In this document: positions 25,001 through 28,000 of the stretch, piece after piece
How positions within the stretch are numbered: position 1 is the stretch's first letter
Layout of the letters: every line of letters begins with the position of its first letter
NCBI GenBank assembly: GCA_035221665.1
Contig: CM069168.1
Span: 2,914,001 to 2,978,000, forward strand
Origin: Okamejei kenojei
Lineage: Eukaryota
Length of the DNA stretch: 64,000 nucleotides
Direction: 5' to 3'
Position numbers and translations under genes: made by a program
Notes under the pieces: generated by a model
What the model was told of the DNA's origin: nothing
The model's database searches: none
The model's input: only the letters and a program-made list of their open reading frames with translations

Positions 25001-28000
25001 GCGGATGAGGCAGCATCTATGGAGGGAAGGAAATAGACAACGTTTTGGGTCGAGACCCTTCTTCAGACTGACGTGGAGGTGGGGGGATCTAGAAACAGTA
25101 GGGAGATGTCGGAAATAGTCCAGGCGTATTTGATTGCCGGACGTTAGTGGTGAAATGGATGAAGTCAGTGAGTTGTGTGTTGGTGCAGGACGTCGCACCA
25201 ATGCAGTTGTCGATGTAGCGGGAGGTAGAGTTTGGGGATAGGGCCCTGATACGCCTCGAACAAAGATTGTTCGATATACCCTACAAAGAGGCAGGCATAG
25301 CTAGGGCCCATGTGCGTGCCCATAGCTACTCCTTGTATTTGGAGGAAATGGGAGGAGTCAAATGAAAAGATATTAAGGGTAAGGACCAACTCTGCTAGGC
25401 GGAGGAGAGTTTCAATGGTTTCTTTGTGTCACATGGACCAGGTACAGTGAAAAACATTTTTTGCTACAGCTCTGCAAGACTATCTCCGCAGCTCTTAGGG
25501 CTAATGGAATCAAGGGATATGGGGATAAAGCAGGAACGGGGTACTGATTTTGGATGATCATATTGATCATGCCTCTAAGGGTCGAATGGCCTACTTCTGC
25601 AGCTATTTTCCATGCTTCTGTGTACCTAAGTACAAATGCCATAAGTACATAAGACCATGATGCCAATTTAAACTAATCTCGTCTGCCTGCACACAATCCA
25701 TATCCGTCCATTCCTTGCACAACCATACTTATTTAAAAGCCTCAAATGTCACTACCGCATCTGTCGCATGTTCCAGACATCCACCGTTCTGTAAATAAAA
25801 AATAGAAACAGCACATATTCTTTAAACTTTGTCCCTCTCACCTTAAAACGATGTTCTCTAATATGTGATGCTTTAATCAGGGGTAATAGGTGAAGAAGCC
25901 TTTATCCATCATCTTTTGGGTGATGTCCTTCCGATCTGTGCTTCTTAGAATTTTATATAATTCTATCAGGTCTCCCCTCAACCACCGGCATACCGGGAAA
26001 AAACAGCATAAATCTGTCTAACCTCTCCTTGTAGCGAATGCTCTTTAGTCCAGGCATCATTCTGGTAAACCTCCACTCCACCCTTTCCAAAACCTCCACT
26101 CCCTTCCTAGATTGGGGCGACCTGAACTCCAAAGGCGGCCTGACCAAAGACCTTCTTCTTCTTCTGTCATGTGGCGTGCACAGCCTAACGTTGTAGGACA
26201 ACTTGTTCTATTTGATTTTCCGTTTGTGCACGTCGAGTTGATTGCATTAGTCGAAACAGGGCGGACTACGTGAAGGTTGCAATCTTCCACCAAAGACCTA
26301 TAAAGCTGCATCATGACTTCTTGACATATTCAATGCCCTGACCAAAGAAGCCAACATGTGCCTTCTTTACTCCTCTATCTACTTGCTTTGCCATTTTTAG
26401 GGAATTATGGACATAGATGCAAAGATAACTCTGTACATCAATTCTGTTAAGGGTCTTACCATTAAATGTATATTTTCCACTTACATTTAACCTCCCAAGT
26501 GCAACACCTCATACATGCCTGGATTAAACTCCATCAGCCAGTTCTTCATCAATTTCTGTAGCTGGTCTATATCCCGCTGAATACTTCGGCAACCTTCCAC
26601 ACAGTCCGTGACCCCAGCAATCTTGGTGTCATCTGCCAGTCCATATATATATATACACAGGTCCTATATGCCAGTCCATATATATATATACACACATATA
26701 TATGTCACAAACATCAACGCTCCCAGCATGGATCTCTACACAACTCCACTGGTCACAGCCTGGCCTTCAGATTGAATATTGCCCTTCCACCACAGCCCCT
26801 CAGTCTTATACCAGTAAGCCAGTTCTGGTTCCTCCGTCTACATCGCAACTGCGCTCAAGATGAGGTGTTCCATAGCGGGACATCTGAGGTTTTCATTTTT
26901 TAAGGAATGAGGGTTCCCCTCTTCCATTATAGATGAGGTCATCACTAGGTTCTCCTCGATATCCGGCAACTTTGCTCTTGCTCCCCCTACCCCTAGTCAC
27001 AACAGGGACAGAGTCCCCTTAGTCCTCACCTTTCAAAGCCACACCCTCCCCAGGTACTTTCCCCTGCAACCCCAGGAGATGCAACAGCTGTCCATTTACC
27101 GCCCCCCTTGACTCCATCCAAGGACCCCTTTTCAGGTGAGGGAGAGTTCACTTGCACCTCCCCCAACCTAAACTACTGTTCCAGGTGTGAACTATATATC
27201 AATGAGACCAAGCGCAGGCTCGGCGATCGTTTTGCTGAACACCTTTGCTCAGTCCGCCTAAACCTACCTGATCTCCCGGTTGCTAAACACTTTAACACTG
27301 ACCTTTCTGTCCTGGGCCTCCTCTGTTGTCAGAGTGAGGTACAGCACAATTTGGAGGAACAGCACCTCATATTTTGCTTGGGCAGCTTACACCCTGGGGG
27401 TATGAATATTGACTTCTCTAACTTCAAATATCCCTGCTTTCCCTCTCTCTCCATCCCTCCCCCGCCCAGTTCTCTGACTAGTCAGACTGTCCCAGATTAC
27501 ATTTTATCTCTGTTTGCTTCGTTCATACCTTCTAGCTAACAATGATCTCTTCTACTTTTTCCTTGATCTCCACCCCCTTTGACATCTCGTACGTTACACT
27601 TCCTTATCTCTGTTTCTCACCTCCGCCTCTCCAGACTCTCAGTCTGATGAAACGTCAACCATTCCTTCTCTCCAGAGATGTGCCTGACCCACTGAGTTAC
27701 TCCAGCATTCTGCTTCTAGCCAGTTCTGAATCCATACGACCATAAGGTCAGAAGGAATAGGAGTAGAATTAGGCCATTCGTCCCATCAAGTCTACTTTGC
27801 TATTCAATCATGGCTGATCTATCGCTCCCTCCTAACCCCATTCTCCTGCCTTCTCCCCATAACCTCTGACACCTGTCACTGTTAATTCTGCAGTGGGAAG
27901 AATGCATCATAACCTTCTAGATTATAAAGTACTTTCTGAAATGTTTTCTAAATAATGTCTCCTGATATTTGGAATAGTCCCAATTACAACAGCTGAAATT

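Follow-up and report, generated by a model that had tools for sequence, protein, structure and literature searches.

The 64,000-nucleotide stretch of the Okamejei kenojei genome considered here (assembly GCA_035221665.1, contig CM069168.1, positions 2,914,001 to 2,978,000 of the forward strand; hereafter the window) carries exons of SNRNP200 and, between them, two copies of a retroelement of about 140 nt. The SNRNP200 exons lie on the plus strand, two being recognised by phmmer (Table 1) and those upstream of copy 1 by eye, and both copies lie on the minus strand, so that, as an earlier note on this DNA had it, they are intronic and antisense to the gene. Copy 2, the subject of that note, is a damaged and likely dead copy, and would be carried antisense in its intron as a passenger; nothing points to a function for the host. 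Copy 2 itself is ordinary, and the interest lies in its family. We consider it rather probable that copy 2 is a dead descendant of a mini-retrotransposon made from the two ends of a 3.1-kb long interspersed nuclear element (LINE) of Vingi type, whose head, a predicted minimal ribozyme resembling that of hepatitis delta virus (HDV), likely frees the element's RNA from host read-through RNA by a cut at its first base, G1.

On sequence comparison, the mini element can be shown to consist of the two ends of one LINE family of this genome with the middle deleted. In BLAST comparisons about 70 nt of the 5' end and 31-43 nt of the 3' end of a LINE of about 3.1 kb full length are common to the mini element, the shared 3' part including the last codons and the stop, and the (GAA)n tail is as in the parent; a stretch of about 18 nt that separates the two parts has no match in either LINE end and by eye resembles a short duplication plus an inverted copy. 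The element is thus an internal-deletion derivative of a LINE, and not a classic short interspersed nuclear element (SINE) with a small-RNA head. The parent was found with a fifth exclusion pattern (115 matches, the parent being one of 30 read) at a locus, L415, where the family head runs on into an open reading frame (ORF) of reverse transcriptase type, and a follow-up search from L415 gave 46 related matches. Four earlier patterns (31, 13, 22 and 3 matches, of which 30, 13, 22 and 3 were read) missed the parent, every match read being taken for a damaged, truncated or rearranged mini copy; one locus among those read (L086, G000:C17:32676354) is a deletion derivative that keeps a longer parent 5' piece than the main family.

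The parent is colinear with the 778-amino-acid ORF of a sister family, V5, in which Pfam, run on a partial ORF, found RVT_1 and did not find RNase H. An apurinic endonuclease (APE) domain was recognised in the V5-type ORF by eye only, Pfam finding nothing in two partial pieces, and the ORFs of the parent copies are broken. Vingi elements are described as having a compact single ORF with APE and reverse transcriptase and without RNase H (PMC13708176), and it is from its size and domain content that we call the parent "Vingi-type". V5 copies are 98-99% alike, have open frames of up to 778 amino acids and carry an HDV-like head with a short P4 helix (L386, L391-L394); of the several LINE families reached through the ORF that follows CPEB3-like heads (see below), two, V5 included, share their terminal motif with the mini element, and V5 is a candidate helper of the young mini subfamily.

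The family is large. A 22-mer of the head has 9,563 exact genomic matches and an 18-mer of the 3' end 9,983, against 0 for the reversed control in each case. Our sample comprised 91 of the first 100 places listed for the 3' motif, every one of them from contig C1. The head 22-mer is present in 39 of these 91, from which we estimate roughly 22,000 copies (about 20,000 in round figures). Among the 91 copies chosen by their 3' end, 79 start at positions 1-4 (positions in the element being counted from G1 of a full-length copy), and 36 of these 79 are fold-intact, while a single 54-nt head sequence, fully paired, has 1,259 exact occurrences in the genome. Body sequence divides the 79 copies into two subfamilies of 45 and 34, with subfamily a the younger (median 2.3% non-CpG divergence), and target-site duplications (TSDs) were found in 60 of the 79, with a mode of 12 bp. 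Eight copies in the first 9 Mb of C1 (L225-L228, L238, L240, L248, L269) carry T29C; two of them also have T36G and two also G32C, in different flanks, which suggests sub-lineages with imperfect heads.

The consensus heads of both subfamilies are fully paired in P1, P2, P3 and P1.1, and the HDV fold proposed earlier is supported at the level of the family. The head of an intact copy, L013, forms 18 of 18 HDV-model pairs in a nested double pseudoknot with P2, a 3-bp P3 and P1.1, and passes the HDV descriptor, which 0 of 200,000 shuffled heads pass and which in 2.5 Mb of simulated sequence accepts a single site; copy 1 and copy 2 do not pass. In both subfamilies P1 has 7 bp with G1 paired to a pyrimidine (the criterion is that of PMC6326823), the U, C and G of loop L3 are present, and the catalytic C stands first in the joining segment J4/2, followed by N-A-A; the descriptor designed in PMC6326823 has a purine at the second J4/2 place, where subfamily a has U. 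P1.1 is a single pair, as is allowed in L1TcRz (PMC3185411). The P4 helix of the canonical HDV form was not found, 6 nt lying between P1.1 and C44, and the minimal form fits. The joining segment J1/2 has 2 nt, as it also does in the active-looking young V5. A metagenome scan gave 8 matches, none continuing as the HDV-like fold.

Comparison with sister heads bears on the same question. Four of eight loci could be parsed, and three related heads were parsed with looser rules. V5, another sister family (V1) and the mini family differ in the sequence of P1 and P2, which nevertheless stay paired, V1 having in addition a different but paired P3, and all three have a G1.U pair and a 2-nt J1/2. The helices covary across sister LINE heads, which supports an HDV-like fold at family level. 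The Rfam model of the CPEB3 ribozyme (RF00622) has 42 matches in the genome, 30 of them over the cut-off and reaching up to 66.8 bits; four (L317, L320, L322 and L342, at G000:C14:40547617, C27:9511932, C14:7155335 and C31:21564843), scoring 38-67 bits, run into a Vingi-type ORF. These CPEB3-model sister heads share their L3 loop sequence with the mini family. A second mini family of about 170 nt (L338-L341, L343, L345) has a 2-nt J1/2 and a P4-less head with different helices, together with an AAG tail, target duplications and a J4/2 that is often CCAA. Another young Vingi-type family (L355-L376, about 92-97% alike) has a longer J1/2 in its head and a different tail motif.

RNA ends were examined in four raw-read runs from two studies, placed on one intact copy; two single-cell runs from one study carry the signal. 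These have 1,906 and 1,643 loose read ends just before G1, compared with 64-126 at neighbouring places, and the consensus of the loose ends is a string that we take to be the template-switch oligo (agreement 0.72 and 0.68), estimated to be present in 48-61% of those reads; the string occurs in 61 listed papers that also mention template switching. Sense depth is about 2,000 and antisense depth about 640, and family RNA amounts to roughly 50-65 reads per million in the two single-cell libraries; in the remaining two runs the signal is a trace at most (agreement 0.39-0.43). Many family RNAs thus begin at G1 in two of the four runs. Poly(A) joins lie inside the A-rich tail of the element and probably come from internal priming, so that they do not fix the 3' end of the RNA.

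Variants in the same reads were compared between strands. The catalytic C of subfamily b belongs to a CpG and thereby comes with an internal control: C44T and G45A were counted 89 and 639 times in sense reads, and 60 and 106 times in antisense reads, so that C44T is 7 times rarer than G45A in sense and 1.8 times in antisense reads. The sense/antisense ratio has a median of 0.44 for fold-breaking variants (n=12) and of 0.93 for neutral ones (n=14), 3 of the 29 listed variants being unclassed. These reads fit self-cleavage in cells, and a transcription start at G1 would give the same signal. The expectation of the earlier note that the catalytic C should be better conserved than other positions held in one comparison and not in the other: among dead genomic copies no better conservation is visible (C44T in 5 of 79), whereas genome-wide a UGAA form of J4/2 is found 2.2 times less often than CAAA, the partner CpG change (666 against 1,484).

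The mechanism that we favour starts from three results shown here: the mini element has its two ends from one LINE family of this genome, its intact heads fit a P4-less double pseudoknot that sister LINE heads keep with other helix sequences, and in one study many family RNAs begin at G1. Those RNA ends would arise by C44-dependent self-cleavage, leaving a 5'-OH RNA. A Vingi protein would then bind the 3' end and reverse-transcribe the RNA in a target-primed manner, most copies coming out full-length with duplications of 11-13 bp, V5 being a candidate helper of the young subfamily. Copy 2 would have joined its target at a 3-nt microhomology, losing G1-G2, and would later have gained G27A.

At copy 2 the minus-strand letters are as the earlier note gave them, and its 39 best matches among other genomic copies are 96-98% identical to it. 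As that note also had it, G1-G2 are missing and P3 has one mismatch, and the inference that the copy is probably inactive is supported: 3 of 18 HDV-model pairs are broken, namely the two outer pairs of P1, lost together with G1-G2, and C19-G27 of P3 (now C19.A27), so that neither P1 nor P3 is intact, and the copy does not pass the HDV descriptor. G27 is kept in 78 of 79 sampled family copies. The perfect 11-bp TSD described earlier is a real direct repeat, but the last three bases of its upstream copy (G3-U5) had been counted twice, also serving as the start of P1. As family TSDs have 11-13 bp in 46 of the 60 cases found among the 79 full-length copies, the likelier arrangement is a TSD of 11 bp and a truncated 5' join made through 3 nt of microhomology. 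The insertion lies inside a decayed LINE fragment that from its motifs we take to be CR1-like. A stem predicted by RNAfold links the two LINE-derived parts; RNAfold z-scores are near zero for the mini element, and the program cannot represent the pseudoknot.

Table 1. Positions in the window of the two mini-element copies, the predicted parts of copy 2 and neighbouring features
Feature	Positions	Strand	Evidence and remarks
SNRNP200 exon (human residues 1032-1060)	12059..12145	+	phmmer E 2e-9
SNRNP200 exon (human residues 1334-1389)	28293..28460	+	phmmer E 1.4e-34
Copy 1, subfamily-b-type	11669..11810	-	private U5C breaks one P1 pair; sequence comparison, pair table
Copy 2, subfamily-a mini-retrotransposon	26154..26291	-	5'-truncated by 2 nt, or by 5 nt if the shared GGT is target
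Predicted minimal HDV-like ribozyme head (positions 3-54)	26240..26291	-	P1 and P3 damaged; pair table; fails HDV descriptor
P1 5' strand, positions 3-7 only	26287..26291	-	pair table
P2 5' strand (positions 10-16)	26278..26284	-	7 of 7 pairs formed
P3 and L3 (positions 17-29)	26265..26277	-	private G27A at 26267 breaks the L3-closing pair
P1 3' strand (positions 30-36)	26258..26264	-	pair table
P1.1 G37 and 6-nt remnant where P4 would be	26251..26257	-	pair table, sister-head comparison
J4/2 CUAA, predicted catalytic C44 (HDV C75) at 26250	26247..26250	-	pair table; HDV numbering of PMC6326823
P2 3' strand (positions 48-54)	26240..26246	-	pair table
Part common to the 5' end of the parent Vingi-type LINE	26222..26291	-	BLAST 86-89% over 70 nt against L462, L463
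Part common to the parent 3' end: last codons, stop, short 3' untranslated region, (GAA)n tail	26154..26196	-	BLAST 80-89% over 31-43 nt, 9 of 20 parent loci
Predicted 8-bp stem linking 5'- and 3'-derived parts (26225-26232 with 26175-26182), small hairpin inside	26175..26232	-	RNAfold; z-scores not significant
Upstream TSD copy, 11 bp	26289..26299	-	sequence; last 3 nt also element positions 3-5
Downstream TSD copy, 11 bp	26143..26153	-	sequence
Decayed LINE fragment, presumably CR1-like, with copy 2 inserted inside	25956..26508	-	interrupted reading frames

The two window copies, 85% identical to each other, had been read as varying only in ways that the fold tolerates, a claim that does not survive the three broken pairs of copy 2 and the failure of both copies in the descriptor. 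Nor does copy 2 repair a mismatch of copy 1: the C5 of copy 1 is its own change, position 5 being U in 79 of 79 sampled copies, with G32 opposite in 70 and A32 in 6. A32 is the state of the parent LINE in 10 of 10 heads parsed, 8 of which have CUAA. CUAA is the J4/2 of the antigenomic HDV ribozyme. The two window copies do have CUAA (copy 2) and CGAA (copy 1), as described earlier; these are markers of the two subfamilies, and CAAA is also frequent in the family. The second J4/2 position (G76) is flipped out to solvent in HDV (PMC6326823). The differences between the two copies are therefore better read as a subfamily marker at a solvent-flipped position, an ancestral A32 and private damage than as evidence for the fold.

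Several observations weigh against self-cleavage at G1 or against the proposed helper. The joint with the template-switch oligo is the same for a cut end and a transcription start, and the signal comes from two runs of one study, whose source organism may differ from the species of the window. Individual reads are not independent of one another, the counts may be dominated by a few loci, and variants were classed after the counts had been seen; they were counted in totals and not per read, and with these totals an absence of C44T from G1-starting reads is no more than consistent. G49A and T29C break pairs yet are not depleted, whereas G32A, C33T and C34T are tolerated by the fold yet depleted, although A32 may be a mark of older copies. 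At a dispensable loop CpG, too, G-to-A is commoner than C-to-T in sense reads (about 2.3 times), and the 2.2-fold excess of CAAA in the genome could go back to one or two source lineages. The P3-breaking T29C is common to 8 of 79 genomic copies, so that some imperfect heads were copied. The J1/2 of the family, of only 2 nt, lies between the two lengths reported for the HDV-like ribozyme Agam-2-1, in which activity was little with 1 nt and slow with 3 nt (PMC4908430). Rfam models match neither the window nor five intact copies as HDV-type. The head of L1Tc is both promoter and ribozyme (PMC3185411). Finally, the parent copies are old (median 87% pairwise) and subfamily a is younger, so that a helper of the young subfamily is a matter of inference.

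The first alternative concerns what the RNA ends represent. The head might mainly be an internal RNA polymerase II promoter like Pr77 of L1Tc, the G1 RNAs being transcription starts and the inherited fold slow or unused. Pr77 starts at +1 (PMC3185411), template switching is generally known to favour capped ends, J1/2 is short and copies with the P3-breaking T29C have spread; however, depletion in sense reads tracks pairing and catalytic positions, and the helix sequences of sister heads vary freely with pairing kept, which a DNA promoter would not require, so that we regard this explanation as rather unlikely. Still less probable is that the G1 joints are a library artefact, in which reverse transcriptase stalls at the strong P1 helix or the G run and the oligo invades. 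The first four bases of the element are Gs, artefacts of strand invasion are known (PMC3562004) and a single study is involved; but invasion requires Gs just upstream (PMC3562004), and two Gs stand there in only 7 of 68 copies, the register of the reads shows the three Gs of the oligo in addition to all four of the element, and a helix stall would be expected on that helix's 3' side and not at G1. A further proposal, taken from the earlier note, addresses orientation: active sense copies would cut host pre-mRNA and be purged, leaving intronic copies, above all intact ones, antisense. Both window copies are antisense and the family probably cleaves; however, two of two gives a one-sided p of 0.25 (n=2), both copies are fold-broken and so say little on intact heads, the T/A skew of the flanks (-0.002 +/- 0.006 over 116 loci) makes an uninformative proxy for orientation, most retroelements are generally known to be antisense-biased in introns anyway, and slow cleavage is tolerated in CPEB3, where the ribozyme is intronic (PMC6765202 for the position). 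We consider purging possible but doubtful, if less so than either account of the RNA ends.

The remaining alternatives concern origin. Derivation from, or mobilisation by, an RTE-clade LINE of this genome could be entertained on the grounds that 17 of 19 bases are identical in P2-P3-L3 and that this LINE, too, carries an HDV-like head and ends in (GAA)n, with similar age and TSD length. The Vingi-type LINE, however, shares both ends directly with the mini element, while the 3' ends of RTE and mini element do not match, 61 and 708 of 2,000 shuffles doing as well at the DNA level and 174 and 185 of 500 at the protein level, and the head of the RTE element shows a C1-G pair, a J1/2 of 1 nt, an A.A within P3 and a P4 of 95 nt. 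The mini-element body as an RTE C-terminus was likewise not significant against shuffles, and while we hold RTE derivation or mobilisation together to be very improbable, an RTE origin is refuted by the unmatched 3' end and the presence of both ends in the Vingi-type LINE. Least probable of all is an ordinary tRNA-headed RNA polymerase III SINE whose B-box region fits the fold by chance: positions 38-43 are loosely B-box-like, but ARAGORN finds nothing at five of five loci, sense reads show no depletion of C41T (6.6% against 7.1%), and the head is the LINE's own 5' end, by which this origin is effectively refuted.

The RTE-clade LINE itself, of about 3.3 kb (L144, L146, L158, L186-L215), was found via Pfam DUF6451. 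Base pairs of the mini and RTE heads were mapped by structure, the MAFFT alignment being misplaced across P4; the RTE head has swapped pairs in P2 and P1.1 (in P1.1 G-C for C-G in 29 of 30), together with the A.A in P3, and, like the mini head, gave no HDV-type match in Rfam. The best match of its C-terminus, at 66% identity, is a protein from oyster, which hints at horizontal transfer. Elsewhere in the window, a pair of 225-nt inverted repeats, 96% complementary, surrounds a 270-amino-acid frame (9404-10216, minus strand) at 8962-10588 in an SNRNP200 intron and is probably a DNA transposon. Frames flanking copy 2 (26911-27539, plus strand; 25001-25428, minus strand) have motifs that we take to be Penelope-like (GIY-YIG type).

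If self-cleavage at G1 is correct, an abundant vertebrate retroelement is headed by a minimal ribozyme of HDV type, a form whose assayed examples have so far come from gut phages and metagenomes, and abundant 5'-OH RNA would be released from host read-through transcripts in living vertebrate cells. Thousands of naturally mutated copies and full-length reads provide a ready in-vivo mutational scan of the fold. The mini family would also define how short the ends copied by a Vingi-type protein can be, a point of relevance to gene-insertion tools built on Vingi (PMC13708176), and the link of Vingi-type heads with CPEB3 makes the origin of the mammalian ribozyme testable. The wider proposition, that dispersed P4-less ribozymes cut read-through RNA in vertebrate cells, that this is the smallest such retroelement of its clade and that the sister heads mark the lineage from which CPEB3 was domesticated, is one that we put forward tentatively, its chances as a whole being somewhat below even.

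No paper on the mini family or on a Vingi-CPEB3 link was found in the accessible literature, repeat databases, patents, supplements and most subscription papers lying outside the scope of the search. The CPEB3 ribozyme (RF00622) is a conserved single-copy intronic element with P4, and its model is matched by the sister heads but not by the mini family's own head. According to a review, some SINEs use HDV-like ribozymes (PMC6765202). Non-autonomous internal-deletion derivatives of Vingi-1_EE likewise unite the 5' end and the 3' end of a compact LINE with a single ORF and are mobilised in trans (Kojima 2011, as cited in PMC5786205), whereas the present family occupies a cartilaginous-fish-type genome, is only 140 nt long and numbers about 20,000 copies. 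NARTc, RIME and SIDER of trypanosomatids are also short non-autonomous elements with an HDV-like head that cuts at +1 (PMC4035085, PMC3185411), and Ingi is the sister clade of Vingi (same sources). L1TcRz/Pr77 shares with the mini family a P1.1 of 1-2 bp (PMC4035085, PMC3185411), but has P4, is cut before C1 and has been assayed for cleavage, whereas the mini head, a prediction, starts with G1.U and is without P4. The R2 SIDEs of Drosophila combine a 5' ribozyme with a LINE 3' end and are released from a host co-transcript, as proposed here, but are rare and confined to ribosomal DNA (PMC3414825), whereas the mini family is dispersed and abundant. Comparable in fold are the minimal HDV-like (theta) ribozymes of gut phages, also P4-less and with the catalytic C first in J4/2, in which a C-to-U change abolishes activity and whose refined motif was found in none of the human, mouse or protist genomes of that study (bioRxiv 10.1101/2023.06.13.544163); these belong to phages and often lie beside tRNA genes, whereas the mini form heads a vertebrate retroelement and is inherited from its parent LINE. 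Ribozyme-headed internal-deletion elements are therefore already known, and what differs here is the P4-less head, the vertebrate host, the high copy number and the reads with G1 ends.

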